From contig CM102285.1 in NCBI GenBank assembly GCA_046563655.1, positions 11,160,001 to 11,224,000 of the forward strand: 64,000 nt of DNA, read 5' to 3'. A program made the translations under genes and the position numbers. Below are positions 4,101-60,815 of the stretch, piece after piece; the stretch's first letter is position 1, and the number at the start of each line of letters is the position of its first letter. The notes under the pieces are model-generated. The model worked only from the letters and a program-made list of their open reading frames with translations. It did not search any database and was not told where the DNA came from. This DNA is from Yuukianura sp. NJ FZ-2021 (taxonomy: Eukaryota).

Positions 4101-7100
4101 TGTCACAAGAGAACAAAGTCACGTTAACTCAAAAGTGCTAATTCACCTTTTCTCTGAATGACAAATTGCCAAGAGCCAAAATTTTGATTCATGAGTTTCT
4201 TGTTCTTTGAGCCGATTGTGTAGCCAGTTTTTAAAAAATATGAAACTTATTTTTCAGTTTTTCACGCCCATTTGCCTAATCACAGTCAATTAATCAAGAG
4301 AGATTTCTAAAACAAGTTTTGATGTCGACATAGTAAGTACAATTTGTCTTATAGAGTTAGGAAGTCCTTGTATTCATCTGTCTCTTGATTGAGTCTACAT
4401 TGTCTTATATTGTCAATTCATCAAAAGAGAGTAGGAAGAGCCTTAAGGGCTCAAGTCCATTTCAAAAATTCACTTGTGATTAATCAAGTGAACAGAAATT
4501 AATGGATTTAAGTTTGATTTGATTCAAACAACCAAACTAATTTGCTATTGAAGTCTCTCCAAAGGTGTTAAGTGCATTTGGTTCCTGAATGGCTCAAGTG
4601 CTAACAGTAAAAAATTGTTGACTGATGGATGTTTCGAGGCTGAATTCCTTTGATTTCACTTTTCACACCTGAATTAGTAATTAAGGTAACAATTTCTCAG
4701 TCATAAAAGATTCAATTCTTCTACTTTTTTTGAGTCCAAGATGTTCTGGTATCTGTGTTGATCTTGATCTGATTCTTGGCGTCTGATGGAGTAGTGAAAG
4801 GTGCGTTTTCTAATGATCCACAGCTCAAATGGTTCCACTTGAAGTCAAAATGGAGGACAAGTTTTTTTGTCAGTCGAAACTGTAGCGCTGCGGCACGGCG
4901 TCGGCGGCGTCAACGGTTCTTCGGAGAGAATGAAGTTATTAGTCCTTGGTCTCTTTTGTAACGATGCTACTTGAGCTATTTTAGATTCATGTCGTCAGTG
5001 AGTTGGCTTTTTTAAGGATTGACTTGGCTGGAATTCCTTCTTCAACAATTGAATTCAAGAGTGATACAAATCTTTTAAACATCTCTGAGGAACAATACAG
5101 TTTCTGTTCAAAAAGATTCTTTGAGACCAAATTGCCTCTTCAACACCTCTCTGACAATACACCGACGTCAGACTGCCGACGACTGACGGCAGCAAATATT
5201 AGCTTTTCTACTTCCAATGCTATCTCTAACCCAATTTACTAACTTCGAAGACTCCCTGACTCTGCAGATTTGAAAATGATTTCAAAAAAAGATTCAGAAA
5301 TTTTGTGGAAAAGATCCGGAGATGTAACAGCTTTGACAAAGTTTTTGACTTTCCTGTATTTTTGGAGAAAGTTAAGACAATTTTTGGTGGAAAACTTTCC
5401 CCGTGCTTTTTTTTCCTGATTGTAGTCAACCAAATAAGTTTTGTTGCGCTGTGCTTGTGGTTTTTTTTTATTGTGGAAATGTTATGTTCGTGTGAAACGA
5501 TTTGGATTGAAGCGTTGAAGCAGGATTAATCAAGACTGAAGGGCGCGTAGTCTGTTCCCCCTTTATTGATGCACATTTGAAGATCGATTGGCAATTTGGC
5601 AGAGCTCTTGTTCAAAGTCAGTGACGACGAGGGGAGAAAGTTCAAAATTCTACGAAAGTGTCTTCGTCATTTGAAGCTGTTAAGATCTTCCGCTTTTTGT
5701 TCTTCATTCGACGCAAGTTCTAAAGTTCTCTCTCCAAGTCCATTAGGATCTAGAGATCTTCTTCCAGAACTTCCACAGAGACGCTTGTGCTTTTCGAAAT
5801 GCTTTTGTTTCTAAGAAAACTTGACTTTTCTCCCTTCATTCTGTCCCTCGAAACTTCGACTTTCTGCCACGCCCATTTCTTCCCTGTTCACAATTTCCCC
5901 CTTCCCAATCCCAGTTCCTGCCGCAGAATCGGTCATTTCCAAAGCGCTTTACTTTTAGCAGCGAAAAAAATCCAATTCCTTTTGATCCTTACCGCAGTGC
6001 TTGAAAATGTTCCCTTGACTTTACGTTTCTCCTTTGCAAAGAACCATGGTGGTGAACCATTATTTACTTTTAGACGAAAATCGTCGAGTCTTAAAGGCTC
6101 CGGAGAAAGGTGTCTGGAGGCCCTTAGCCTTTCATGTTCCAACCCTTGCATGCAGAAACAAACCTTACATAACATTTACTTTTTGGAAACTAAGGGCCCC
6201 TGCCCTTAAAAAACCTGACCTCGACCTTTACCTTTCCCAAGAAGAAAAAACTTAAAGGAGGCGGTTTAGCTAATTTCCGTTGTAGAGCCCGACAGAAGGT
6301 CGGCTCCACTTTTGTCTTTAACTATATCCTATGGTCTGTCAATTGGTTAAGCAAATGCCATTTTAGACAACTTCAAGGCTTCAAGGTAGGCGACTAAGGG
6401 CCCCCGTCCAGAATTTACCTTAGGAAGGACCCCCTTCATGGGTAGGCTGCTCACTTTCTTCTAAATCAAAATTATTATCCATATTTCTCATGCTTCGGCG
6501 CCTCGAAATTGCCAAGAGTTTGAGCAATTTAATTTTCGAAAAGTGGCTGAGCATTTTTGTTTCAGTTTTTTAAGTTGAAAGGAAATGGGCCGTTTTCTTT
6601 AATAATTTTGTTTCAGTTTTGAAAATAACAAGCCCCTTTAACCTCTATCATTACTCAAATTAACAAGGTAGAAATTTCTGAACAAAACGACATGGATTTC
6701 GAACTGTGAAGTGGTTTTCAGGAATTTTGGATTTCGTTTTTGAAAACTTGGAAAATCTGAAATTTCATCTTTCAGTAGATTATAGTCATCACAAATGTTT
6801 TGGACCCGCCCGATTGTCTTGACTTTCTCCGAATTGTGTCGTTGAGTGAAAATAGATTTTCAATTTGACAAAATTTTGAAAAGCGGAGGGACGAAACCTT
6901 ATTTAAGTTTTAATTTAATAACCAGGCATTGGATATCTTAAAAATTAAAGCCTTTTCCTAAACCTCCTCGTACGTTATGGAATTAATTAAATAGAGCAGA
7001 GACATAAGTAGGAAATTATAGAATTCAAAATTTGAAAAAGGCGTTTTCTTCCAAATTTTGAAAGGAAAGAAAGAAAACTGATTACAATTTAAAGAAAATA

Positions 7101-10100
7101 GAGGCTACTCCAATTGAAATTAATTTATAACAATTTAGTGGATTACTCATGCAAGGTTATCTTTAAATTTTAACTCTAACCTTTTGGAGACTATCAATTT
7201 TTGAAAAACAAAAACAGGACACGGAAAAAGAATGATCACAATTTGGCCTAATACTTTCTCCTGCTTCTTTTTTCCAAGTTGGAACAACTCCGCCCATTTT
7301 GAAGGAGAACTGAAGTGGAAAAATTTAATTCCCAATTTCCATTGTTCTTGTTCCTTTGTTTCTCGTTTTATAAATTGCTTTCTGTGTAGCACTTTTTCTT
7401 TGAAATTTTTAAAGTTTTTGATGTGAGTAATTTCCAATAGTTTTCCAATCAAGCCGACGAATATCAGAATTTGGCTTACGCTTGAAGGGGTAAGGTTGAA
7501 GTAAGGGAACAATCGCAACGTTGTATCCAATCGAGAGATGTAATTTGTGTCGTATTTATCTAACCAACTCAAAATGTCCGTTGAATGCTTCTATGACATA
7601 ACAGTATGCTGTTTCGTTAGATTCGCTTCAAACTTAATTTAGTTTAAAATTTTTAATCAACCATGTATCGGTAGCTTATGAAACATTAAACGTACCGTTT
7701 TCGCAGGAATGTCACAGTAGTGTAGTTTATTTCTTGTTTCAACCACAAGCTACGTTTGACTTTTTTTTTAAAAAAACCTGAGTTTGAAGTAACTTTTCTC
7801 TTATAACTTAGGGAATAGAAAGAGGCTGAGTCGATATCATATTTTTCATGTTCCTGTGCAGAGGACCACGCCCCAAAGAAATGAAGGAGGACGGCCCAAC
7901 ATGTCCTTTAAAAAAGATGATAAATAGTTAAATACTACATGGAAGCTCACTTCTCACAGCAGGCCACTAAGAACCCCCTCCTGAGATGATCAATTTTTCA
8001 ACATTTTCAGGTTTTTTAAAGAAAAAAAGTTGTTCGAATTGGAAAACCTGGAAGGTTGTGCACGGGGAAAGCGTAATGATTCAATAGGTACTATGTGAAC
8101 TGAGGTGTTTGGATTTAAGCGTCTGTGACCTTAGGTTCTCCGGCTGAAGATGAGCTATTACTAACAGTAGTTGTTCATATTAACTTAACAGCTTGTCCAC
8201 CTCCTCAAAACTATACTTTATCATCCAAAAACTTCATCTTTTGCGTCTCGAATTCTAAATAACATTTTCTAAACACGAAAAAAGTTGTTCGCATCTGCCT
8301 AGCTTGGAAACAACACTTTCGGCTTATTTTAAAACAAGAAATTGTATTTTGTAGAAAACGGGAGGAAAAAGAAGGGTTAAAATATTTTACAACTCAAAAA
8401 TGAAGTTACGGTTCGTTTGAAATGCAAAATGTGGTTCCCGTGTGTGGTGTTGGTTGCCAGAATTTACTAATTCTTCAGCACGTCTTTCAAGATCCCATCT
8501 TTTCGCCTTCGTTTCCTTTCTGGAATTTGGCAGAAAACAAGTTTTTATGTTCGGAAACTAATTTTTGAAAGAAAAACGACAAACTAAAATTTCGAGTCAC
8601 TCCAATTTAGATCTCCTCCGCAAATACCAACTCTCAGTCAGTCATTCCTCCACACCCAGGTTTCATTTTAGTTTCAATTTCGTAATGTCACACTTGAATT
8701 CAATTTATGTGTCAAATTCTTTAGATTAAATTCGACAAAAAATAACCCTAAAAATAATCTTCTGTTAATGCGACAGACTCTCTCTCAGATGGCGGAGTAC
8801 CAAAGAAAGTTTGGAATTGGAGAAAGTTGACGCTTTGAAGTTCACTAGTGAAAGTGTGGCAATAGACGAGGGAAGTTTCGAATAACTAATTAGTTGAGAT
8901 CTCATCTTCCGCAGCTTCCTTCATCTTCATTTTCCCTTTGGTGACATTTGAGGACCATTTCAGTCTTCCCAATTAGCCTTTTGCCTCTTTGGCTCGTGAA
9001 CTTCATAAAATTTGACTCCTAGAAGCTCTCCCTTTGACCCATTAGCTTTTCAAACTCTCTTCCAAAAATTAGTCCTCAAATGTCTACAAAATGCTTAACT
9101 GTTCTTTCTTTTTCAGTTTAAAAAAAAATGAAGTTTTGAACTTTACAAATTCTCAATGTTAAATTTTGAAGCAGAAACAAAATGTTTTATTGAAAGTCGA
9201 TTGGAGAAAGTTCGGAAATTTGACCGTCTGTAAATTTTCTAATTCAGTTTCCACTTCTAGCACAAGAAGATTTTCCTGTGACTGTTTCCTTGTTTATTAA
9301 AGTGACCTGTATGACCTTTCACCTGTTTGTATTACCAGAGGTTTTCTTAACTATAAAAAGAGAAATTTTGGCAACAGTTAGATTTCAAACCACAGGAATT
9401 GCCTAGCCCCAATGTTCATGTTCCTTTTTTTGAATCATTGAAGATTGAAGCTTATTTTGACACGGTGCAGTGCAGACAGAACAAGTTAATGCTCAAGTCT
9501 GTTTCTTTTGTCTTGTCTCTTGAGATCTCCTGGTCCTATGGAATGCTGGTAGTTTTTGAAGATGAAGATCATCATGTCGTGGCAGATCTTGAAATTGACA
9601 GGGGAAGTTGAGGTTGGGTGCCTAATGATTCGTGAAATGCTTCCATGAACCATGCATCATCTCTCGAAGGCTTCAGAAGACCCACCACCATCATTTCAAA
9701 GTTAACTTGATCAAAAAGCCTCTAAAATAAATTCACCATTATTTATTACCCAACCGCACAGCTCCCTGTCTCGAAACGGTGGAGAAAAGCCTTTCAATTT
9801 CATTTCCATTGTCAAATCTACACAGTTCTTTTTTCGAAGTGCAAGTCTGTTTCAGTAGCACCCAGATCTCCCTTCCCTTGGCTAAAGCCACCATGTCATT
9901 CCAGTATTTTGATTCAGAGCCCTTCCTCTATTCAATTTACAACTGCTGAATTCGTAAAGTCAAAAATCAAAAGTTACCACCACAGTGGGCATGGTTTTTG
10001 AAATGCCTTCTCCAATTTTATGGACCGCCGTTCCCAACAAATCTAAAACTTCATCCGTGTCATTCGGATGTTTAAATCGAACCCTCACCAACATTAATAC

Positions 10101-19314: not shown

Positions 19315-22300
19315 TCAAATGGTGGGTTTGATGTCTTGAGCCATGTGACCGTGACTGTGTGGATGGTGGCTGTGGAGATGGTGGTGGGGCAAGTGGTGGT
19401 GGGTCGGAAGTGGAGGTGTTGTGACGGACGAGGCGGGGCTGTTTCCCGAGTTTCCTTCGGAGGGACTGTTGTCATCGTCGTCGTCGTCTTCGGAACAGCT
19501 CCGTTTACTGCCCTCGTTTCCTGATCCGCTTCCGTTTGCACTGTGGGTTTTCACATGCTTGCTGAGGTGATCTGATCTCATAAATCTTTTAGAACACACA
19601 GGGCAACTAAAACGTTTTTCGCCAGTGTGGGTGCGGAGGTGGCGCTGAAGCTCATCTGACCTGGTAAATCGCTTCCCGCAGAAGAGCCAGTTGCATACGA
19701 ACGGGCGCTAAAGGCAAAATATTTCAAAATTTAGAGTTTTAGCCAAAACCAAAAGCTTCGGGAAGGAAACAATTCCATTTCATCAAAGAAAAAAACATTT
19801 TCAGTTTTTTGTTTTCATCGCCGTTCACAAAATTGAAGTATTTATTTCAGGTAGTATTTCAAAAATTTGAAGTTGAAGTTTGTGACACTGTCGCAGAAAC
19901 ACAACTATTTTTGAAATCCTATTTTTAAAAATTTAGAAAATGCTGTGTACTTACTTCGCCTGTGTGCCACCTGAGATGAGCCTTGAGATGCGACGTCTTT
20001 CCATAAACCTGTTACAGACAAAAAACAAACAAAAACCAAAAGTCAATTTCATTTTAAAATTGAGTCGATTTAGAATTTTTTCAATTTCCTTTTACGCGTC
20101 TTGCTTTGGAAATCAACTGCGGTAAAACTCGTTCTTTAATTTTTTCAAAAGTGATTTTATTTCCCATTTACCAGAAGACTAACAAACTTATTTAAGAAGT
20201 CTTGGCATGAAATATTGCATGAGACATTCAATTCCACACGATCTGTGTGGTCAATTTCACTTGCAAAAGGAAATGGTCTCTCTGACACATCATCTCCGTT
20301 AAGGATCTTTTAGTTCTCTCAACTGCTTCACACAGCTCTTCCTTAGCTACTTTTAAATTCAAAATTTCAATTCACAAGAAGTTGAAAATTGAAAAATTAA
20401 AACCAGTTTCGAGTCTAAGTCGCAGAGCAGAATTCAAAATGCGTTTTCGGTTTAAAGATTCCTTCAACTCCGAAATCCACTTTACATTTTAACAGAAATA
20501 AAAATATGAATATAGGAAAACAATTCTACAACAGTTCGTAATCTTCATGTCAACTTATTGCATTCGGAAGAAATTCGTAATGTAATCGACGAAATATTTT
20601 AAATGGTTTGTTGACATGACGGAATTGGAAAGGTCAAAGGTCAACTGTACGTGGTACTTCCAAGTTGGAAGTAATCCCACAAAATTTTGATTCAAAATTT
20701 TCTCGTACTCATAAAATTCATCAAAATTTCGAGTACTAGTAAATGATGCTTACCTTTCCACACCCGGGGATATGACAAGAGTGAATATTTTTCTTTCTGA
20801 GATGTGCCCCTGCCGGACCGAGTCTCTCAGCCTCTTGACAGTTTGGACAATCACAGGTTGCTCGACCAGTGTATCTCCGCTGGGATCGAGGTGAAGGCAC
20901 CTGCTAAAAACAGTTAAAAAACAAAAAGAAATTATACAATTTTTGTACTTAACATTTTTTTTCAAAATTACGAAACATTCCTCAGAAAGTAATTTCCGAG
21001 TCCTGAGGTAAGCGAGAGGGACTCACACTCTCCTATTCATTGTCAAGTCACGAGTTGGTGGCAATGATCAAATTGGAAATTACGTTGAGGAATCTGCAAC
21101 TTTTGTGTTTTAAAGTGACTAACCTGTTGTAGAGAGGTTTGGCCCAACCCAAATCCCACATTGGAGCCTACAGTTTGTGTTGGTAGCATTGACTTGTAGG
21201 TGTCCTAGAATTACGCAGAAATTTTATTACCAAATCTTAATTTCCAATTAAAGTTAATAGTATTTTTTAAGAGCGTGGATGATTTTTAGTCGCTTTGGGA
21301 AGTTAGAGATGAAATCGGAAGTTGTCATCCTTCCATCAGAGGTTGGCGGAGAGGAAGATTTTACCTGAAGAAGATGTTGACCTGAGGTCAAGATATGCGG
21401 ATTAGAGGCGGCTAGTGTATGTGTTAGGGTCGAGTAGTCATTGTAGTTGGACATCTGATGATGTGGGTGATGAGCATGATGCATTCCAGTGACGGCGGCT
21501 GAACTGATTCCACTGTCCAGCCAACCAGCTCCGGTGGCTACACCGTGCACTGCGTCCCACCATGAGGTACCGTTCATTCCTGACATCTATTCCACAAAAT
21601 CACAATTTCAACTTTGACCTCAAAATCCTTACGTATTGTGGTTTTACACGAAGGAAAGTTAAAAGGAAAGCATTTACGTAAGGAATTTTCGAAAACGGAA
21701 AAATTGCGGATCTTTGAACAGTGAAAGTTAAAAGCGTTCCCTTTCTCTGATTTTTTTAAAAACAAATTTTCGAAAAAAACGAATCGAAAAGTATGTCAGG
21801 TTGGGCCATTTTTTTTAGAAAAATGTCGTGGAATATTTGCTTACGTCTGCCTTAATCCCTGAGTGAGCTCCAGACATTGCATTGAAGGCCCATTGGTCAT
21901 AGGCTACACGAGAGTACACAGCGCCCACTCCAGCGTCCATCTTGGTAATGTACCCAGGCGGAGACTGGTCACCGCACGACGCCGGATTGGCTGACCTGAA
22001 ACACAACCGTTAGCCCGGGAATTTTAAAACAATGTTCTTCAAGTTCAACACGAAGGGAGACCAATTACCCATGAAAATAGAGTTCCGCAGCATACCCTGG
22101 ATTTCCACATGAGGTCGTGACCGGAGTCCGACCATATCCAGAACTTTGGTTGCTCGAAGAGACAGAGGAGGCTAGGCTTCGTTGAGCAGCGCTCAGGAGA
22201 GACACTCCTGTATGCGCCAATGAATTTCCAAGCGAAACAGCGCTACTTGAAGAAGAGCTCGTTCCGCTCGTAGGAACATTTGACCCGAGATGACCTCCGC

Positions 22301-45817: not shown

Positions 45818-47665
45818 CTAGTAGAAAGTGGGGTAAGGGTACTGGTAGTGGTGATGTTCTTGTTGTTGAAATGAAGGGAAATGATGATTTGAAGTCATTG
45901 ATGACATCAAGTTGAAGTTGGTTGAAGTGTTACCGAAAGCAGTGTTAGAAGTGGCAGAAAAATTTGAACTTGGTGTCCCTTCGTTTCCACCTTGTTGATG
46001 AAGTGTACTGTAAAAATTTGGAAAATGGGCCGAAGATGAGCTACTGCTGCCAAAAGTGACATTAGCAGGAGGGCCCTTGACAGGTGACCCAACTTCGGAC
46101 GAGTCGTCCGAGTCCGAAGAAGCAGAAGACTGGGACGAAGGGGACAGGGGACTTGACATGATTGAAGACGACGGAGGTGACAGAGAACGACCTGTAGTTG
46201 ACGTGACTTCGTCCAGAGTCAATTCAGATTTTGGAAGGGTCCTGTCACTCAAGGGCTCCTTTGAATTATTCGTCTGCTTCTTCACTCCATTGTTTCCATT
46301 GTGCGTTTTGATGTGTTTTGAGAGATGGTCAGATCGCATGAATCGTTTAGTGCATACTGGACAGACAAACCGTTTTTCTCCAGTATGAGTTCGGATGTGA
46401 CGCTGCAGTTCGTCGGAACGTGTAAACTTTTTTAAACAGTACAACCAGCGACACAAAAATGGCTTTTCTCCGGTATGTCCTCGGATATGGGCTTTCAAAT
46501 GTGATGTTTTCCCATAAATCTAAACAAAAAAATATTGATTGTAAATTCTTAATTAAAGTAATTGTAGCTTTAATTTTCAAAAGGAAAGTTATAATTACCT
46601 TTCCACAACCAATGATGTGACATATATGCTGTCTTTTCTTTTTCTTTTCACCTTCCACTGCAAGAAACAAAACAAAATTTTTGAGTATAAGCACAAGACG
46701 ATTGTAACTTGTATAATTGCTTCAATTTTCGACAAAAAAGCCTACAATTGTACATTTACATTTATGTGCCTTTCTCCAAATTATGATTTGCAGTTTTGGA
46801 ATCATGGGCGTAGTGAATGCAAAAGGAAAAAAAATCCGCAACTGTCATAACTTAAATTTCTTTCCCATTTTTTGTGATGTTAATTCTTTTACAATTCTTT
46901 GGAGTTTCAGCAGTAATTACACAATTTCAACACAACATGTAATTATTTTTGTCATTTTTGTCAAAAGCACATAAGGTAAGGTGAACAAAAAAAGTTCGTT
47001 TCTTCAATAAGAAAGAATTAAAATTTAAACACCAGAAGTGGGTGGTTGAACAAAAGTAATTGCAGAAAATAACTTTGGTTTGTAAAATTATTATTTTCAA
47101 AAAATAATTTTTACCGTTAAGTGGTTGAATTCCTGAAAGACAATTTGGACATCGACATCTTCTGGATTTGCGTTGAATGGAAAGTGGAGATGCTGAGTGA
47201 AACTGTAGTGGATTCGGTGGAGAAAAGTAAGTTGATTGGGCTGATGATGACGATGGCGTCATTTGGACTGATGGTGGAGACAAGGACGGTGGGGGAGAAG
47301 GCCACCACTGGAAATGGTCTTTTTGTGACCCACCAGCCCCACCGCCAGCACATCCAGACCCCACTTGATTGTGAAAGTTCGTCATGTTGTAAAGTGAGGT
47401 GTGATATGGAGTCATCGTTGGTGAATGATAAGTTGGAAACTATAGAAAAAAAATGAAAAATTGTTACAAAATTGGCAAATATAGTGAAAGTTAAAATTTT
47501 AAATTGAGGTGACAGTGTCAAAGACATTGGTTTCAACGTAATTTTTGAAATTTTTTTTTCTCAGAAATAAGATGCAAATTACAAAATTTACAAAATTTTG
47601 CTTACCTGATGAGAAGACATGGAGCTGTACTGATGATGAAATCCATTCATGAATAGGCCATCCAT
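45818..47665 (-). CDS. Sp5/btd: Sp5/buttonhead-class zinc-finger transcription factor, 381 aa. Exons 47665-47606, 47439-47115, 46657-46599, 46519-45818.
   Basis: Btd box [10 protein letters not shown] of the Sp5/btd type. Three fingers: [73 protein letters not shown]. Long Ser-rich C-terminal tail. GT-AG introns with consistent phases (60+325+59+702 = 1146 nt). The Sp-family call is firm; the subfamily call is by motif. Confidence 0.88.
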
Positions 47666-50600: not shown

Positions 50601-53600
50601 TTTTCTCTTTTTAAAATTTTTTGAAAACTGGATTCTCCTTCAATGCTTTCAAATTACAGTTTATCTTGTTTCCAGCATCTACCTATTCCATATTTTGGAT
50701 TCGAAACTTGTTCTAACCGATTTCTAAGAAATTTGAAGTGTAGAGCAGATCTAAGCATTACTACGATGGATCTCTAACCCTAAAATTCAGGCCTTCATGC
50801 ACCTCCGAAAGAGTTTTGACTATGAAGTATGAACTTTCTTTCAAAAATGGAAGAATTTGGAACTGAATCTTATCAATTTTGAAAATCAAAGACGGCTTGT
50901 TCTGTTTACTTGTTCAAATACAGCTGGTTCAAAGGAAAATGTCACCGGTGCAAAAAGTGCCGTTCGACACTCGATGTCACCGAAAGCTCCTCCATTCCTT
51001 CCGGTTTTGAATGTCCAAAACCAATTGCCTCTGCCTCATTTTAAACGAAAAGTGTAAACAGGAACTTTCAAACCCTTTGTTGACATTTCAGTGATGATGG
51101 AACCTACAGCGGCGCTGATTACTTTTGTCACATCGACTTTGAACAACACAAATTCTGTAGCCAAAAGGTTGGAGGTCACTGCTTCACCGGCAGGAAAAAC
51201 CTTTCACGGTTTTTAAAATTCTGCAAGAAGCAGAAGCTATTAAACTGTCAGTAACCAAAATCCTCCAGCAAATAATAGCCAAAATGGACAAGGATTTGAA
51301 GAAAACAATAGATTTGTGAAAAAAGGACAGAGGGAATAAGGGGGCCATAAAATAAGAGGACTTAAGGCTCATAAATTGCTCACTCTTCGGTCCAATTCAC
51401 TCTTCAATATAATTTGAAGGGGCCCTTCGTTCAGAAACCAAGACATAACGATCCTAATTATTGACTGCTTGGCAAAGGCCCTTAAACTGGCTGTTTAGGT
51501 TATTTTTGCAGTTTTAGAAGTTTAGAGTTTTAAGAAGAAGCGTAGGAGGATGATTGGCATGTCGTATTTTATGTCTTTGACGACACAATAAATGCCTACT
51601 TAACAATGACAATGGGACATGCTGTAAAAGTATCTCTCTTAAGGGACGGCCATATACATGAACAATCATCTTTAGTACTTTAAGGACCGTGGGAACTTTT
51701 CTGACGAAAAATCCCATTCTTACCGAAATTACTCCAAAAATACAAAGACCAAAAAATTTGTTGGTTTTTCACCAACAAATTTGGAAGAAAAAAATTGCTA
51801 CAGGCAATAGAACGAAAAGTGGTTAATGGAATTAGTTAGGAACTCATTGCCGATTTGTACAAGTCATTCCTCATTCGTATTGAAAAATCCGAAAAAGTTT
51901 TAAGCAAAGGATTAAGTATTAAGTTTACAAAACTTAGCTAAAACCAAAAAGTTGTGAAGAATATAACCAATATTGACAAAGTTAGTGAAACGGAGTTCAG
52001 ATTTTAACTTGGAAAATTTCAAATCTAAACGGAGACGAAAATTTTTGTCTTTAGGTGACTTTTACTTTTTCGTTCTGAAATCTGAGAAGTTTCTACTTCT
52101 GGAGAATTGAACACGAGTCGAAATGTCAAAAAGTTCAAAAAGTTCATGAAACGTGAAATGTGACACTGAAAATAAGGAAACAACACCACATCTGACTGAC
52201 CAAACGCCGTGTGCTTAACACCCTTGAAAGCAACAAGAAGCTCAATTGACTCTCCGACTTTGACCCTACGCCGGCCCTTAAGGGCTCGGGTCACTTCGTC
52301 CACTTAAATCCGGAAGAGAAATTGTTTCAGTTTGACACTTTTTGCCATGTGCCCGCTCCAAGCACTTTGACAGTTTTTCGGTCTTTTCCAACTTTAGAAA
52401 AAGTACTAGAAGTTCAAAAATTAAGAGACGCTTGCTACGCTTTCTGCATCATTGACACATAAGGGGTCACACACACATGGGACAGACCTTGCGGGTACTA
52501 ACATTTTGAAACTCCGCCTCCAAAACTTCATTTCAATTATTTCTAAAGTTTCGCTTCCGGATTTACTGCCAACCGTTCATTACAGTGCCAAATGGAATGA
52601 CCCCCGAGGGGGTCAGACGTGACGCAGCATTGTGTCTGGTACTGAAAATTCAAATTTCTGACAATTTCACAATTTTGGAATTGTGTGACCCTACAAAGCC
52701 CTAGGGTGACCCAGAACTGCTTCGCAAGCGTTTTTCTGGATCATCATGTGTGGTAAACTGTTGATGACTTCTTTTTGCCTATTGGTCGACTGTCACTATC
52801 TAAGGTATGAAATTATGACAGAGTGCGTTTAATTTCTCCCGGAGGGACACTTAAGCTTGGAAATCCGGATTTCAAACATGACTATTTTTTTCGATCCTTC
52901 CTGAATCCTAGGCTAGCCCTGCTAAAACGCATGAAAGAAAAAGCAATTCCACCTCAAACTTTGGTTTGTTTGAAAGATCAATCACAGTATTCAAAACTTC
53001 AGTAACTATTCTTTTTCAAAAATCTCGACACCCAAGTGCTAAATGAGTTATCCCGTATTTTGTGGAAGGACTTTAGAACAAGGTATTCAACATGGCATGT
53101 TCAAAACGTCTCCTGCAAAGTGTACAAACACCCACATCGACTTGTGTGGCCCTTAGATTATGGTTGTTTCCCAAGAAGTCGTGGTCAACTTTTCGGTTGA
53201 CCTCTTGCTGAGGTACTGAAATGGAACTTAAATTTATGAGTTTTTGAACAAAATTTTCAACAACACACTAGTTGCATTTCAAGTCAAAATTTTCAACAGC
53301 AAAACAGTTTGAAAAATACGAAATCTTAACGAAAATTCGAAAATTGAAGAAACTTTTTAAAACATCCAACAAAATTCGATGCATAACTTGCGTGCCACGT
53401 AACACTAAAGTGAGTTTAATTTTGAAATTTTACTACACTTGAATTTGCTTTTCTTTCGAGTGGAGCTGACCCTAAGCAAAACTTTCAAAATTTGAACCTA
53501 CGAAACACCAAATTTGGAAAAACTTCTGAGAAAACTAATTCCTGTGAAATCTTCTAAAATAACGGGATGAGCATTTACGAAATTTCAGGTTAGTACATTG

Positions 53601-54420
53601 TTCATTGACACCGAGAAAGGACCTCCCAAGTTCTAGTTATTCTGGAAGCCATGTTCTGTGGCTTGTCGCTTGAAAAGATAGTACTTGGACAGGCGTGTGC
53701 TCTGAGACAATTTGAAGGGACTACTGGGCCCTTTAGAACAAAAGTCAAGAAAACCCGCCCCTCTATGTGCCCTTATGCAGATGTTTGACTGGCTGCATGT
53801 CAACCCGGGTCTTAGCGCTTGTTCAAACAGGACACAACCACATGCATGCTAATTCCTTGTTGGTTTTGTTCAAAACCCAAAATATTTCAAACAAGAAATA
53901 CCACAAGAACTGCGAACAATGAAACGAATCCTTTACAATTTTAGAAACTGCGGGGATCTAAACGTTTGAAAACTTTTTCAACTGGGAATTCTATAGCAAA
54001 GTATGTTCGGAATGAACTAGATCTCAGAATTTGGTTGGATCTCAAGCAAAGTCAGAAAAATACTTTCGGATAGTTGTGCATTCTTCTAATAAAAGAAAAT
54101 TAAGGAAATTGTGCTGACCTGAAACGGAGCTGGAAACAGTCGGATCAAAGGACGGCGCTGACTCCCGGGGTTCCATGACTTCTGCTCCAATGATTAACGT
54201 CCTGTGGATCTTGTTTCTTCAAAGTGTGCGGCATCAGTTTACACTAGGTCTTCGGACCATAGGTCTAAAGGTCAAGTTCAAACACTAAAACACTAACGAA
54301 TTCGGGCATCTTTAGAGTTACAAGGAGAAACAACCCTCAGTCATCTCCTCATCTCTGTCCAAGTTCACAATTTACGACTTTTCCCAAGAAGCCAAGATGC
54401 GGTTCTTGGAAAGGAACTTC

Positions 54421-54487
54421 AAAGTGTTGTCCAAAAAAGATGTTGAAAAGTGCTGTCCAAAAGTTTTTGGAAAGTGCTGTCCAAAAA
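54421..54487. repeat. Three direct copies of AAAGTG(C/T)TGTCCAAAA with short spacers
   Basis: aaagtgttgtccaaaa ... aaagtgctgtccaaaa ... aaagtgctgtccaaaa, read directly from the sequence. Confidence 0.85.
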
Positions 54488-55524
54488 ATATCTTGAAACG
54501 TGAAGTCCAATATGGCCGGAGTTGGAAGATGGTTGCGCGTTTCCTACGAAGATCATAATAATCGTAGTCCTGAATCTAATAATTTTAAAATAAAAATGCA
54601 ATTAGAACAAATTTAAGGCTCCAGGAACCTTTTATTAGTGTACAACTTATAAACAATTAATTCGTCGTTTGTAAATTGTAATCTAATACCCGGACTCTGG
54701 ATAAATTACTGGATCTAGAAATACTTGCTATGTGCAAACAATTCAATAAATCCTTAATTAACTTCGATTGTCACAATCGAATTTAATAATTTAAACTTCC
54801 AACATTGTATAATATAAGTTAGTTGTTTTAACAAATATTGTTTAACCGTATTAACTTGGAGTAACTTTTTAGAACACGTTTCGAATAGAACAAGCTTTCC
54901 ATTTGGATCTTAATTGCAATACTGATTTCTTACTTAAATTAGTTTCTTACTGACACAGCACTGAATAATTCAGATCGATAAGAGTTCACATTTCATGGCT
55001 GCAACCATTTTAAAATGGTTGTAACCGGCTCTTGAATGAGTTGAAAATTATAAATAAGTTTCTAACAAACTAAACGCATATGAAAAAAATAAATAAATAA
55101 ATAAACTTTGGACTAGAATTTAAGTTAGAATAACAAGTTGACCGTTTGTTGTAAATTATGGTTCGAAAATTATCGGTTGGCTTTGAAAACAAAGCTGGAA
55201 TACTTTAGTAATTAGTAAACTGTAAACCAGAAATCTTTGGTTCATGTTGAATTAACCTAAGATTTAAAGCTCTAGCACGGCGCATAATCGATTGATCTTA
55301 AATGATTGTCGAAAAGATTCGTCAGACACAAGTTAAGTGCTGATAATACCCATAATTCGAAGAAAATATAAATTAAGCAATCGACTGACTAACAATTTTG
55401 GCAAGTTCCATTTAGCTTGAGCTTCCAATTGTAAACAAAATTGTCACCCACCAACCCGTGGAAGAGCATACTGGAAGTTTTATCATAACTTTACGTTAAA
55501 ATACTGATGGTAACAACTTTACGG

Positions 55525-56571
55525 TTAGTGCTCCGCTGAAGAAGATTGTCCAAGGGACCTGGCCTTAAGTTCTCTGCTCCCATGCAATCCAGCACCATTC
55601 GTATAAGTTTTGCAAACGTTTCCAGCAGAAACAATAGGCAACAGTGGTGGTTGCACATACGGAGAGATTGAATTTGAAAGTTTCATACAATCTTCGAGAG
55701 TGTTGATGAATGTTTCACAAGTAGCAGAAAGCAACCCGGTACATTCGTCAAGTTTCTGTGAAGAAAGATCGTTTGAATTATCTCAAACACATTGACCTTT
55801 TGTAGTTAGCGCTTATAAGTAAAACAATCGCTCGAAGGAGAGCTTAGGGAAAGAAAGGAGAGCTTACGACAACGTCCGTAGTTTCGGCACTCGCAGCTTC
55901 CTTGATGGAATGTGCCAACTGCATGAGCAAATCACAATACAATCGGAGTTCCGATTTCTTCGTTTTAATTGCGTCTGGATTCGCAGAATCTATAAAATAA
56001 TTAACAAAGAATTGAATAGGCAGAATTACGTTTGTGGGAATAAAAGGGTGGCAATCGGTCAATCAAACTTAACTCACCAACCACTGATTTTCGAACCCCT
56101 GATTCAACACCATGAGCCTTCGCAGTACCAAGGGCAACTAACCACTGCTGCCTTTCCAGCGTACTGCTGGCTCTCACATACATATGTTGCTCCCCTGGTA
56201 TGACGATGTCAAGACGGAGGTTGTCAGTTGGATGGACTAAAAAGATGAGAAATCTTAGTTTAACCATGTCATATGTTGGCAGTTGACCATTGCAAATAAC
56301 TAACCATTGATATTACACGCAGAAAGGCATACGGACCCCTTACAACCTTGTGTGACCTCGTCCTCTGAGGTGTAATACGATAGAACACCATCGTCCAGAA
56401 TAAACCACCTTGGCTGCCAGCCTAATACAAAGAATCGTCTTCATCAGGCTCCATGTCATGTTTACGTTCTACAGTATCTGCATAAGTAGTTAATTTATCA
56501 ACATTCTCTGTTCTTTTTCTTTATAACTTACCCATCCAGTAGTTTGTCCATTTCCAAAGAATCCCTTTCAT
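55525..56571 (-). CDS. PLEKHA3: PH-domain protein, PLEKHA3/FAPP1-like (no GLTP domain), 222 aa. Exons 56571-56532, 56421-56305, 56236-56078, 55989-55868, 55755-55525.
   Basis: [30 protein letters not shown]...GCKGSVCLSACNINVHPTDNLRLDIVIPGEQHMYVRASSTLERQQWLVALGTAK is a FAPP-type PH domain. It is followed by the conserved KTKKSELRLYCDLLMQ and LLSATCETFINTLEDCM segments. 669 nt in frame. Confidence 0.9.
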
Positions 56572-57349
56572 TTTAAGTATCTGAATTGAGAACCCGACGT
56601 ATGAATAGACAAAAACGGAGAGACACACAATATCCGCAAATTAGCGTTTAAATGATAAGTCTGAGTTCAGTGATCCAGATCTTTGATCTTGTACTGTAAA
56701 CTGTTTAATTTAATCACTAAATAAACACGTCTACAAACTAATTAAAAAATTTAATCTTTTCGCGAACTGTCATTTCAAAAAAAAACTTCCGAATCTTAAC
56801 ACAACCTCAATCACCCAAATTTCACATATGGGCAGAAAAATGGGAAGTCATACGAGACAAATTATTGCACAATTAAAATGGAACTTTAGCAGACTGTAAT
56901 GGATGTTCTCTGCAACTTATGCATCATAACTGCCTAAATTAAATATAATAAGTTTTGGAATAATTAAATAAGTTCATAAAAACTTTAATTAAGTACCATT
57001 TTTTCTGAGTTTACTAAATATTACAAATGACACAAAATTGACATGATTATTTAAATACTCAACACTGGAGGGTGCAGGGGAAGCTGTTTAGATATCCGTG
57101 TTTCATGAGAGTGCAACCGTGTGAACATATGATGACGTAAACTTCGCGTAACGGTAAAGAGCGTGCAAATTGTGAAAACAACTTCATTTATCTGTAAAAG
57201 GTTACGGCAGGTCAAGCGACACGACAACACGGAGGACATTCGAGAAGCGGAACAGCTGTTGGGTCAACTCATTGTTGTAAGTTCGTAATACAAGGTCAGC
57301 AATAGGAAAATTGGTTTGGTATTTATCATTTGTTTTATTTCCAGTGAAA
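56572..57349. promoter_or_regulatory. Head-to-head intergenic region (probable bidirectional promoter plus 5' UTRs) between the PLEKHA3-like and GlnRS genes
   Basis: Divergent ATGs separated by 778 nt. A splice acceptor TTTTATTTCCAG ends at 57344, just before the GlnRS ATG, implying a non-coding first exon. The TSSs cannot be determined. Confidence 0.55.
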
Positions 57350-59641
57350 ATGGAAGACGGAAAAACCGGTGAAGATATGTACAGCGAGCGGCTAAGGAAA
57401 ATGCCGTTACATAAACCCGGTGAAAATCATACCATGGATGGGTATCCCCAATCGGAGAAAGTTCTGAAACTTTTGGATGACCATGCAAAAAGGACTAACA
57501 AACAGGTAAAGAAAATGGTTTCGCAACATAGTAGAGTAGATTACATCATTCTTTAATTTTATGTTGATGATGCTTTACTAGGTCAGAACAAGATTTCCAC
57601 CAGAGCCGAATGGAATTCTGCACATTGGTCATGCAAAAGCAATCAACATCAATTTTGGTTATGCAAGGGTGAATGATGGAATCTGCTTTCTGAGATACGA
57701 TGATACGAATCCTGAAAAGGAAGAAGAACGTTTCTTCAAAAGTATTCTTGAAATGGTGAATTGGCTAGGCAAGTAACGTTTGTAATTGAAGGAAACAAGT
57801 CCATGATCTATCTATTCAATGGCAGGATTAAGACATTAAATTGTTATTTTTCAGGTTACACGCCTTACAAAGTGACCCACGCTTCGGATCACTTCGATCA
57901 ACTGTACGAATGGGCTCTTGTATTAATCAAAAAAGGGCTTGCGTACGTGTGTCACCAAAAACCAGAAGAATTGAAAGGATTTAATCCTCCGCCATCGCCA
58001 TGGAGGGAAAGACCAATAGCTGAAAGCTATCAACTTTTTGAAGTGAGTTAGCAATGGACTGGAGAAAGACTTCCAATTTTGAAAACTTAATTTTGTTAAC
58101 TGATTATAGGATATGAAGAATGGAAAGTTCGCTGAAGGCGAGGCTACTCTACGAATGAAAATTACACTGGAGGAAGGGAAACAGGATCCCGTGGCTTATA
58201 GGTAAAATAAATCTTACGAAGCGCTTCGTTTCTAAATATCTACCTGACCTGTAACCTGCATTTGACAGGGTTAAATTCCTCCCCCATGCGAAGGCTGGCG
58301 ACAAATGGTGCATTTATCCAACCTATGACTTCACACACTGTCTATGTGATTCCATAGAAGACATCACTCATTCTCTTTGTACCAAGGAATTCCAGAATCG
58401 TCGATCTTCGTACTATTGGCTATGTGAAGCTGTGGATACTTATGTTCCAGTTCAGTGGGAATATGGACGTCTCAATGTCAACTACACAGTTGTGTCCAAG
58501 CGGAAGATCGCCAAACTTATTGAGGAGAAAATTGTGAAGGGTAAATACAGTTACGCCTTATTGAAATTTTAGTGTTCTAAGTTAATCATATGAACTCTCT
58601 TATTTTACAGATTGGGATGATCCAAGGCTGTTTACGCTTCCAGCTTTACGTCGTCGTGGGTTCCCACCTCAAGCTATCAATGAATTTTGTATTCGCATGG
58701 GAATCACCGGTGCCCAGATTACAGTGGATCCAGGAATGTTAGAAGCCTGTGTTCGAGATTATCTTAATGTCAACGCCCCTCGGACTATGGTTGTAATTCA
58801 TCCTCTTCGTGTTGTCATCGAAAATCCAGAAGATCTTCCCCAGACGATCACAATTCCTGACTTTCCTGTAAATCCTACCACTTCTCCGACTCATCAAATC
58901 GCTTTTGACAAGGTCATTTACATCGAACAAGAAGATTTCAAAGAGGTAACTCTGTCTTTAGACAAATCTTGACCGTCTATAAATTCGTCGAATTCAACTA
59001 AACATAATTTTCAGAAATCCAACAAAGGATACAAGCGATTTGCCGTGGACCAATCTGTAGGCCTCCGGTACGCGAATCTCGTCTTGACTTGCACTGAAGT
59101 CGTGAAAGACGGGGAAGAAATCAAGGAACTCCGCGTCAAGTGTGCCAATGTCAATGCAGTTCCAAAACCAAAAGGATTCATTCACTGGGTCGCAAAACCG
59201 ATTAATTTGGAAGTTCGTCAATATGAACGCCTGTGAGAACCGCATCGCGTGAAAACGTATTAGATAAGAGTTGCTGTATTTTCACTTTATCATTCCTTTA
59301 CTTTTAAAGATTCAAGCACAAAAATCCTGAAGACAAGGCCGAAGTTCCGGGTGGATTTTTATCGGATTGCAATTTGGAAAGTCTAAAAGTTGAAAAAGCC
59401 TACGGAGACGCGTACCTCAAAGATGCACAAGTTTTTACTCAGTATCAATTCGAACGCTTGGGTTATTATTCAGTTGATCCAGATTCAAAACCGTCCGAGG
59501 TAACTTTCTAAATATTTGCATATTAGCGTTAATTTTCACCGCGAGTGATTTTTTTTTGAAAATTCTAAATTCGCTTTGTTTCATTTCTAGATCGTTTTCA
59601 ACTGCACAGTCTCTCTGAAGGAAGATCCTGGAAAAAATTGA
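57350..59641 (+). CDS. QARS: Glutaminyl-tRNA synthetase, 562 aa, lacking the eukaryotic N-terminal domain. Exons 57350-57505, 57582-57768, 57855-58042, 58110-58201, 58269-58540, 58611-58945, 59015-59232, 59310-59499, 59591-59641.
   Basis: Motifs [20 protein letters not shown] (HIGH), [42 protein letters not shown] (KMSKS equivalent), [26 protein letters not shown] and terminal LKEDPGKN. 1689 nt in frame; AATAAA at 59691-59696. Confidence 0.96.
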
Positions 59642-60135
59642 CAACATCGATTTAGCAAATCCAGAAAATTAAGATCTTCTTAATTCATGAAATAAATTCA
59701 AAAACTCACTTGGTATTTTCTGTTGTATTTCTTCACGAATTCTGCTGCTAACAACATGCTCAGGTGAAATATTTTGTAATTTAAATGTCTTTTGTGTTTC
59801 TAAGAGGGTGTTAGGGTGGACGCTCGTGTTATGGCATCCTGTTTGCGAGTTTTGTGGTATGAATCACTCTTTTTCTGTTGTAATACTTTGGTGCTGCATC
59901 TTCTGTACATGCATTGTTGTGTATTTCTGTTGACTATAGTGAAATATAGACAAAAGGTGGGGTTCTGTAGGTAGTTCATCGATTCGGATTGAATTCAAAA
60001 TCAGGTTTATTTTAAATTGAATTGAAATTGAAAGTCGATTAAATAATCCATCCTGACCTGGATATGTAGCGTTTTCTGACACCAAAATTTAATACTTTTT
60101 TTATGTGACCGACGTCAAAGCGAGGAAGAATCAGA

Positions 60136-60815
60136 ATGAAAATTTTATTTTTCGTTTTGTTTTCATTCACATTAGGTGAGAATATTTATTATATTAAACT
60201 AATTCTAAAATTAATTAATTCCAATAAACTAATTATGTTATTTTTCAGAAACGGTGAAAGCCTTGGAATGTTATGTCTGTACAAAACAGGAAGGGAACGT
60301 GGAAAAGTGCCTATCAACTGTAAAGACGTGCAAAGAGGAAGAAAACGTGTGTCAAACTGAACTGCGGTGGGGCAGTAAGTTGACGCTGAAGAAAATCAAA
60401 CTGCGTTTTAATCGTTCGTTTAGTTAAATTGAAGTTTTAACTTTCACTGATGCTGTTTTCAGGTACGCCATATTGGAATCAAGTAGCAGAGAAACAATAC
60501 TATGTGACCAAACGATGTGCCAAAGCTGATGACTGTGCCCATCGGACGCAACAGTTCATGATTCACTGTCACCGAATTTGGTATGAGGACTGGAAGTGTG
60601 CTGAATGCTGTCAGGGCGATCGATGCAATTACTACATAATGGTGAGCCAATCAGCGTTATTCCGAAATTTCAATATCTGTATCAATTTGTATTCAATCCG
60701 AAATTTGGTCGCAGTATTCTTAAATTTCAATTCATTTTAGATGGGAAGCAGCAATTTAAAGATGTGTTGGCCTCTTCTTCTATTTCCGTTAGCAATTCTC
60801 TGGTTTCAAAAATGA
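60136..60815 (+). CDS. cold: Ly6/uPAR three-finger GPI-anchored protein, coiled-like (septate junction), 139 aa. Exons 60136-60175, 60249-60374, 60463-60641, 60741-60815.
   Basis: Signal peptide MKILFFVLFSFTLETVKA. Domain LECYVCTKQEGNVEKCLSTVKTC...ELRWGSTPYW...KQYYVTKRC...CHRIWYEDWKCAECCQGDRCN, with a CCxxDxCN end and a hydrophobic C-terminal GPI signal. Closely resembles Drosophila Coiled as I recall it. Confidence 0.88.

Follow-up and report, generated by a model that had tools for sequence, protein, structure and literature searches.

A stretch of 64,000 nucleotides from Yuukianura sp. NJ FZ-2021 (assembly GCA_046563655.1, contig CM102285.1, positions 11,160,001 to 11,224,000; hereafter the window) carries a gene for glutaminyl-tRNA synthetase (GlnRS) at 57350-59641 on the plus strand. 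The canonical N-terminal domain (NTD), which has roughly 200 residues and precedes the core of nearly all eukaryotic GlnRSs, is not encoded within the 57 kb upstream or the 4 kb downstream of this gene, on either strand. We consider it probable that the locus is a constrained, NTD-less orthologue of the cytosolic GlnRS of springtails, which would have been re-headed at an ancestral intron beside a PLEKHA3-like gene, and that this state is common to the window and to L001, its closest relative among the loci of a metagenome scan.

An exhaustive search of GT or GC donors and AG acceptors left two stop-free gene models, and once the consensus site at 58540 had been chosen by eye as the donor of exon 5 a single model remained, with nine coding exons, a product of 562 amino acids and neither stops nor frameshifts. 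This model reproduces the 562-residue reading frame of an earlier note on this DNA, which had placed its start 20 residues before the HKPGEN motif. Coding exon 1 (57350-57505, 52 amino acids) opens with an ATG in the context AAAATGG and holds the tail of the Pfam R2 region, corresponding to the ordered hinge helix, followed by HKPGEN at residue 21; [11 protein letters not shown] begins at residue 53. The catalytic domain starts in exon 2 (57582-57768; PF00749, E 3e-30), which carries HIGH at residue 66, and continues through exon 3 (57855-58042; PF00749, E 2.1e-12), exon 4 (58110-58201; PF00749, E 0.0098 on a 31-residue piece) and exon 5 (58269-58540; PF00749, E 1.4e-33), where the KMSKS-type motif VSKRK lies at residue 283. 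In exon 6 (58611-58945; PF00749 and PF03950) the catalytic domain ends and the anticodon-binding domain begins. Exon 7 (59015-59232) also belongs to the anticodon-binding domain; it aligns with homologues and as a piece alone has no Pfam match. The second anticodon-binding domain is found in exon 8 (59310-59499), and exon 9 (59591-59641) ends in a TGA at 59639-59641, 50 nt before an AATAAA (59691-59696) that is likely the polyadenylation signal. All of these features lie on the plus strand. Searched exon by exon against Pfam, the class I Glu/Gln catalytic domain PF00749 is found on exons 2-6 with HIGH and VSKRK intact, and both C-terminal anticodon-binding domains are present (PF03950, E 1.2e-12; PF20974, E 1.9e-9).

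All eight introns of the coding part are short, at 67-91 nt. Intron 2 (57769-57854) is, as a correction, a GC-AG pair with the donor GCAAGT at 57769 and not GT-AG. The equivalent intron of L001 is GT-AG, unlike that of the window. An alternative in-frame ATG at 57377 would give a product of 553 residues, and the methionine that it encodes is conserved in L001.

The gene is of the eukaryotic class I type, and it probably encodes a working cytosolic-type GlnRS made up solely of an ordered hinge helix, a catalytic domain and two anticodon-binding domains. A homologue search with exon 6 returned 1980 proteins at E <= 1e-10 among 2137 candidates, of which the best 120 were used; the best identity to exon 6 was 70%, and no identical protein occurs among these best 120 of 1980 matches. 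Residues 3-562 align with residues ~220-781 of full-length arthropod GlnRS at 64-69% identity. Glutamine specificity was judged by homology alone, from this identity of 64-69% to proteins named glutamine--tRNA ligase and from the nesting of the window protein in that clade. When the protein is set against solved structures, its residue 2 falls opposite residue 210 of the human GlnRS chain, which places the start of the window protein at approximately human residue 209. According to PMC4838373, the human enzyme has an NTD (1-182), a disordered part of the hinge (183-216) and a helical rest of the hinge that extends to residue 263 and packs on the catalytic domain. Since the predicted start coincides with the onset of the ordered hinge, the window protein would lack the whole NTD together with the floppy linker.

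Canonical animal GlnRS (human QARS1, 775 amino acids; insect enzymes, ~775-785) has the same core domains, HIGH and VSKRK motifs and hinge helix before HKPGEN. In comparison, the window protein is without R1 and most of R2, that is, without human residues 1 to ~209, which comprise the two-lobed NTD and the disordered part of the hinge. Bacterial GlnRS of the E. coli type is similar in size and domain set and is also without an NTD. Unlike bacterial GlnRS, however, the window gene has eight spliceosomal introns, codes for the hinge helix typical of eukaryotes and clusters with the genes of springtails. It is thus not a bacterial transfer, a recent case of which the earlier note had already ruled out: its core is of eukaryotic type, rich in introns and placed within the hexapod (springtail) GlnRSs with a support of 99, in trees made up of GlnRS sequences with no bacterial ones among them. 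The suggestion that the enzyme might be organellar fared less well. Mitochondrial presequences have a basic, acid-poor N-terminus, whereas a composition count of the first 20 residues of the window protein gives five Asp/Glu against four Lys/Arg; an organellar role is therefore not supported by this acid-rich start.

The absence of the NTD was approached with several kinds of query, all compared with the whole window. Pfam R2 (PF04557) is present only in part, in exon 1 (profile positions 56-92 of 94; E 0.0035; 18.5 bits vs a cut-off of 25.1), and R1 (PF04558) is found neither in the GlnRS gene nor in the 3457 six-frame open reading frames (ORFs; >=12 amino acids) of the window. When the NTDs of 18 homologues, those of 77 full-length homologues that matched a motif pattern, were compared with the window by tblastn, 162 pieces were returned at E <= 10 (best E 0.12), and matches recurred solely at 57344-57427, the site of the retained tail. 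The Allacma fusca NTD (from the protein P0086) and six short NTD-bearing ORFs likewise gave significant tblastn matches in the window only at 57392-57520 (E 8e-13 to 3e-10), again the retained tail. A profile hidden Markov model (HMM) of the 18 NTDs reached a best E of 1.1 against the 3457 ORFs, and a larger profile built from 117 NTDs (240 positions) reached best values of 0.54 and 0.59. The latter matches, at 5242-5481 (-) and 8562-8726 (+) with E ~0.5, were dismissed as noise, their alignments sharing almost no residues. The exon 1 peptide, used to look for longer proteins, brought up five candidates, none of which scored.

The 117-NTD profile does recover the domain where it is present. 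As positive controls, it picked up four NTD exon ORFs in each of the metagenome loci L002 (E 2.8e-20 to 8.3e-5) and L003 (E 6.7e-23 to 0.1), all of them <= ~1.1 kb upstream of the exon that is homologous to exon 1 of the window. Where the domain is spanned by a locus that is transcript-like or poor in introns (L004-L006, L008-L011) it scored E 1e-58 or better, and on the short locus L007 it scored E 3.5e-11. By both tblastn and profile HMMs, no ORF resembles the GlnRS NTD beyond the retained tail, neither in the 778 nt next to the gene, where the earlier note had seen no ORF long enough for some 200 residues, nor elsewhere in the window.

Phylogenetic analysis places the window gene among those of springtails. 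In a first, quick maximum-likelihood tree of 49 rows, chosen from the best 120 of the 1980 exon 6 matches, it falls with two springtails, Allacma fusca and Orchesella cincta, at a support of 99 in the Shimodaira-Hasegawa-like approximate likelihood ratio test (SH-aLRT). A scan of metagenome contigs by alignment of exon 1 peptides yielded 12 loci, and a second tree was computed from 40 rows, namely nine loci projected on the window model, 30 picked proteins and the window; the projection may inflate the likeness of the loci. In this tree the window pairs with L001 (SH-aLRT 100) within a clade of support 99 that also holds (Allacma, P0159) and (L002, (L003, (Orchesella, P0007))), and the end branches measure 0.10 for the window and 0.06 for L001. 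Among the loci of the scan L001 is the closest relative, with 88% projected identity over 553 residues and the same intron positions. Similarity at the DNA level begins at L001:959, equivalent to 57366 of the window, and extends through the end of the gene into a Ly6/uPAR-like gene downstream.

L001 also resembles the window in lacking the domain. No canonical NTD occurs in the 951 nt available upstream of its exon, where the best match of the 117-NTD profile has an E of 1.7. In the springtail-like clade NTD sequence is seen in Allacma (P0086), P0159, L002 and L003 and is missing only in the window and L001, so the simplest reading would be one event in the common ancestor of these two, which fits the lineage-specific event that the earlier note had proposed. 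The Orchesella protein model is incomplete, beginning within exon 2, and is uninformative on the NTD. In P0086 a normal R1 (1148-1311) and R2 (1314-1406) stand directly before the GlnRS core; as a whole, this model joins a PR-domain/C2H2 zinc-finger protein (~73-910) to a complete GlnRS (1148-1950), and it is probably two neighbours merged by annotation. Over 548 codons, the window and L001 differ with a nonsynonymous proportion (pN) of 0.061 and a synonymous proportion (pS) of 0.71, corresponding to a dN of 0.064 and a saturated dS of ~2.2 with a ratio of ~0.03. Given this low dN vs a saturated dS, the GlnRS cores of both loci are under strong purifying selection.

The position of the first coding exon suggests where the gene may have been re-headed. 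The intron that precedes the HKPGEN exon is in phase 1 in the window, L002 and L003, and it lies 22 codons before the histidine in the window vs 21 in L002 and L003. Because the phase is the same and the position agrees within one codon, the window still uses the ancestral acceptor. Five nucleotides separate this acceptor (AG, 57343-57344) from the ATG at 57350, with the reading frame open across the acceptor. Upstream of it, a putative leader intron of 67 nt (57278-57344, +) has a GTAAGT donor, a pyrimidine-rich tract and a CAG acceptor and is similar in length to the other introns. The donor closes a putative 5' exon at 57136-57277 (+), which is preceded by an in-frame TAA (57133-57135); no plus-strand ATG occurs from 57133 to 57349. 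The GC content of this putative exon is 0.46 vs 0.32 further upstream, it holds 47 open codons in phase with coding exon 1, and its GC by codon position (0.55/0.33/0.50) is like that of the coding sequence (0.54/0.35/0.40). By eye, a faint 'LLG' likeness raised the idea of a decayed R2 or linker exon, which was rejected on a score of 1.1 bits against the NTD profile and the lack of a Pfam match. We infer that 57136-57277 is a non-coding first exon, that 57278-57344 is a leader intron and that translation starts at 57350.

On the other side of the putative 5' exon lies the divergent gene. Its start codon (56569-56571, -) is 778 nt from the GlnRS ATG, and its first exons run leftwards to ~56004; the encoded pleckstrin homology (PH) domain is of the PLEKHA3 (FAPP1) type (Pfam PH, E 4.7e-6), and the best PDB matches are the human PLEKHA3 chains 3rcp, 2kcj and 2mdx (E 1e-13 to 1e-14). 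Both the distance of 778 nt and the PLEKHA3 identity given by the earlier note were reproduced. Taken together, the following course of events may be proposed. In the common ancestor of the springtail-like hexapods represented by the window and L001, R1, most of R2 and the disordered linker would have been removed, most likely when the gene was rearranged at the ancestral phase-1 intron in front of the HKPGEN exon, or a short way upstream of that intron. The old acceptor would now receive a short exon transcribed from the 778-nt region shared with the PLEKHA3-like gene, and since this new 5' exon is without an ATG, translation would start at the first ATG of what was formerly an internal exon. 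The enzyme would charge tRNA-Gln in the manner of truncated yeast and human GlnRS, probably with lower affinity for tRNA and glutamine unless compensated, and would still be able to join the multisynthetase complex via its core.

L001 may have taken a different course at its 5' end. At L001:563-865, upstream of the core, a coding-like stretch of 101 codons is bounded by a strong acceptor and a GTAACT donor, with 77 nt between it and the AG at 941-942, and splicing there would join it to the core in frame; an ATGCAG/GT mini-exon is possible at L001:327-332. The GC content of the stretch is 0.51 vs 0.42-0.43 around it and is highest at the first codon position, and the encoded peptide is a coiled-coil-like segment followed by a Pro/Ser-rich tail. 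It has no counterpart in the window and no Pfam family above the cut-off (only weak matches of the coiled-coil type), and its best PDB match is Sec72 at E 0.007. Among 1.84 billion representatives it found only its own ORF (P0164) and one match at E 8.5e-4. This upstream exon may give the L001 enzyme an N-terminal extension that is young and unrelated. Alternatively it may be a small ORF of its own, in which case the enzyme would start at the methionine shared with position 57377 of the window.

The earlier note had also raised an error of local assembly as a cause of the missing exons. Five DNA runs contain the stretch, and the contigs of four of them, from two studies, were aligned on 52001-60500. 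Contigs of all four runs cover this region in 30/30 bins; in X4, the run that comes from the second study, a single contig reaches from 56739 to 58857, and its neighbour covers 55808-56735. In none of the four runs does a long loose contig end occur in the intergenic region or at 57345. With coverage complete, a single contig running across 56739-58857, and the independent metagenome contig of L001 likewise without a canonical NTD, the idea that a local misassembly deleted the NTD exons is very unlikely. In run X3, loose ends at 57894 and 58185 coincide with GATC sites and link parts of this one GlnRS gene that lie far from each other. These ends were considered as traces of a second gene copy and rejected, as joins at GATC sites within one gene look like proximity-ligation chimeras. 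The aligned contigs carry many variants (95-99% alike), indicating that the sample is heterozygous or pooled.

The window gene is not the only animal-type GlnRS with a short start. Several stored sequences begin 7-30 residues before HKPGEN (P0047, P0074, P0116, P0119, P0054). Of these, P0116 and P0119 are 562 and 563 amino acids long, whereas P0047, under the NCBI name of the mite Halotydeus destructor, has 540 and is also cut at the C-terminus. The short form of P0054, from a bug, is probably a model error, because its sister sequence in the tree is full length. At the locus L012 (gene 3384-6366), no match to the NTD profile was found in the 4.7 kb upstream, and the GlnRS there may be read as having a first exon of three codons; the divergent gene that ends 1.3 kb from it is, we presume, MCM-like. 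These short forms suggest repeated NTD loss in invertebrates, or else repeated model errors. Their existence makes a natural NTD-less animal GlnRS more plausible and the case of the window less unique.

Work on other GlnRSs indicates what the loss of the NTD would cost. In the view of PMC3333875, the domain goes back to the tail with which GatB recognises tRNA. PMC4838373 describes it as ubiquitous among eukaryotes and links its mutation causally to a brain disease in humans; PMC3333875, however, names Trypanosoma brucei, Leishmania major and some Eurotiomycete fungi as lacking it. The statement of the earlier note that animal and yeast GlnRS carry an NTD thus describes the common case, but it overstates how universal the domain is. 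The enzymes of T. brucei, L. major and the Eurotiomycetes are, as PMC3333875 describes them, natural NTD-less forms, as that of the window would be. They belong to protists and fungi, however, whereas the window gene is nested among hexapods with NTD-bearing close relatives. Yeast with Gln4(211-809) as its sole GlnRS is viable, but its growth at 14-19 deg C is poor, and the truncated enzyme has a weaker hold on tRNA-Gln and glutamine (PMC3333875). Gln4(211-809) resembles the window protein as an NTD-less eukaryotic GlnRS, and differs from it as an engineered fungal construct that is sensitive to cold and to glutamine limitation. The presence of the NTD correlates with U73, the discriminator base, in tRNA-Gln (PMC3333875). 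We found no tRNA genes in the window, L001-L004 or L012 from which the discriminator of tRNA-Gln could be read.

A further counterpart is the human fragment 199-775, a calpain product whose N-terminal boundary is nearly identical to that of the window protein (199 vs ~209). It is stable and active, with a 5- to 7-fold lower kcat/Km owing to a higher Km, and it still co-precipitates members of the multisynthetase complex, which the fragment 1-198 does not (PMC4646279). In this case the short form is a proteolytic product of the full-length protein, whereas the window gene itself encodes it. The part of GlnRS touched by the ArgRS/p43 coiled coil is the catalytic core (PMC4394549). The view of the earlier note that the NTD makes the contact to ArgRS and AIMP1 is not supported by these papers, since the contact is made by the core and human GlnRS without residues 1-198 still enters the complex (PMC4646279). 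In the light of these papers, an NTD-less animal GlnRS is biochemically credible, probably at some cost and with the ability to join the complex retained. Our literature search found no report of GlnRS NTD loss in an animal and no paper on glutaminyl-tRNA synthetase in Collembola.

Several points weigh against an NTD-less orthologue as the main GlnRS of this organism, and the alternatives that they touch overlap with it in probability wherever the two are compatible. The absence of the NTD was established for the 64-kb window, which leaves room for a paralogue or a separate NTD gene elsewhere in the genome. In addition, deletion of the N1 part of human GlnRS lowered kcat/Km 270-fold and deletion of the whole NTD abolished aminoacylation (PMC4838373), so that a sole NTD-less animal enzyme is harder to accept unless the loss is compensated. 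Furthermore, L001 and the NTD-bearing L003 have the same collection prefix and could therefore in principle be two genes of one organism. Each of these points would suit a full-length, NTD-bearing GlnRS elsewhere that leaves the present locus as a specialised or redundant paralogue. We nevertheless regard such a second copy as unlikely. The core evolves slowly (branches 0.10 and 0.06; dN 0.064 against a saturated dS), unlike that of a relaxed duplicate, and the three springtail-like subclades are compatible with three orthologous lineages. The GC contents of L001 and L003 differ (0.42 vs 0.37), no second GlnRS-like sequence more than 70% identical to exon 6 was found among the best 120 matches, and the partial contigs of X3 are apparently chimeras of one gene. 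Still less credit is given to fission, whereby the NTD would persist as a separate gene and act in trans with the core. Only an analogy speaks for it, namely that the NTD of yeast, taken by itself, binds RNA without specificity and is similar to the tail domains of GatB (PMC3333875). However, no stand-alone NTD gene was seen among 45 matches (30-1075 amino acids) to the Allacma NTD, in a search that was not targeted at this organism. The short R1-only sequences P0156, P0157 and P0158 were examined as stand-alone NTD genes and rejected, being exon ORFs that end in intron read-through directly behind the first coding exon of otherwise normal genes.

Other points against the preferred reading concern the 5' end, where the first exon, the start codon and expression were all deduced from the sequence. 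The frame is open across 57344, and 57136-57277 offers 47 in-phase open codons with coding-like GC, so a further, unrecognised N-terminal coding extension is possible. For L001, the upstream sequence searched for an NTD is short, and its in-frame, coding-like exon with good splice sites and the possible mini-exon at 327-332 suggest that the lineage may carry non-canonical extensions instead of none. A hidden extension could take two forms, either canonical NTD exons on another scaffold or at a distance of over 57 kb, or a short, non-canonical stretch that includes 57136-57277 and is reached from a small ATG exon. We think that either form of hidden extension is improbable, somewhat more so than a second copy although less so than fission. 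No similarity to the NTD exists in the 57 kb upstream on either strand, and a giant first intron is unlikely because the eight known introns measure only 67-91 nt and the divergent gene starts 778 nt upstream. The in-phase frame runs into the stop at 57133-57135 and offers no ATG. The L001 exon has neither a counterpart in the window nor homologues beyond its own ORF, which argues against a conserved module, and even a real extension at 57136-57277 would not be a canonical NTD, given its score of 1.1 bits. For these reasons we retain the NTD-less, re-headed orthologue as the best explanation of the locus.

Just downstream of GlnRS, at 60127-60740 (+), a small gene with a signal-peptide-like start matches the Ly6/uPAR three-finger families PF00087, PF00021 and PF16975. 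A Ly6/uPAR-like gene also follows GlnRS in L001, indicating that synteny is kept downstream and not upstream. The 57 kb upstream contain ORFs of C2H2 zinc-finger repeats at 45821-46519 (-) and 19318-19707 (-) and few other recognisable genes.

As far as the literature that we found extends, this would be the first NTD-less GlnRS in an animal lineage, of a variant already described in other eukaryotes. Beyond this, we hold it possible, though somewhat doubtful, that a springtail-like lineage relies on a sole GlnRS without the tRNA-sensing NTD, which would be the first such case in a free-living animal. A full-length paralogue or a hidden exon would reduce the finding to an ordinary detail of annotation. 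If the reading is true, however, the 5' end of GlnRS would be open to turnover, with a plain truncated start in the window and an orphan coiled-coil and Pro/Ser-rich extension in L001, and the locus would illustrate the way in which an intron allows an essential gene to be re-headed. Compensating changes would then be expected in tRNA-Gln (e.g. at the discriminator base) or in the core of the enzyme, and it could be tested whether NTD loss accompanies a change of the discriminator base of tRNA-Gln, in keeping with the correlation reported in PMC3333875. The window enzyme also bears on the human truncation studies, which conflict in that activity without the NTD was abolished in one (PMC4838373) and reduced 5- to 7-fold in the other (PMC4646279). 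A natural NTD-less animal enzyme with NTD-bearing close relatives would thus provide a ready-made experiment on the role of the NTD in metazoan GlnRS.

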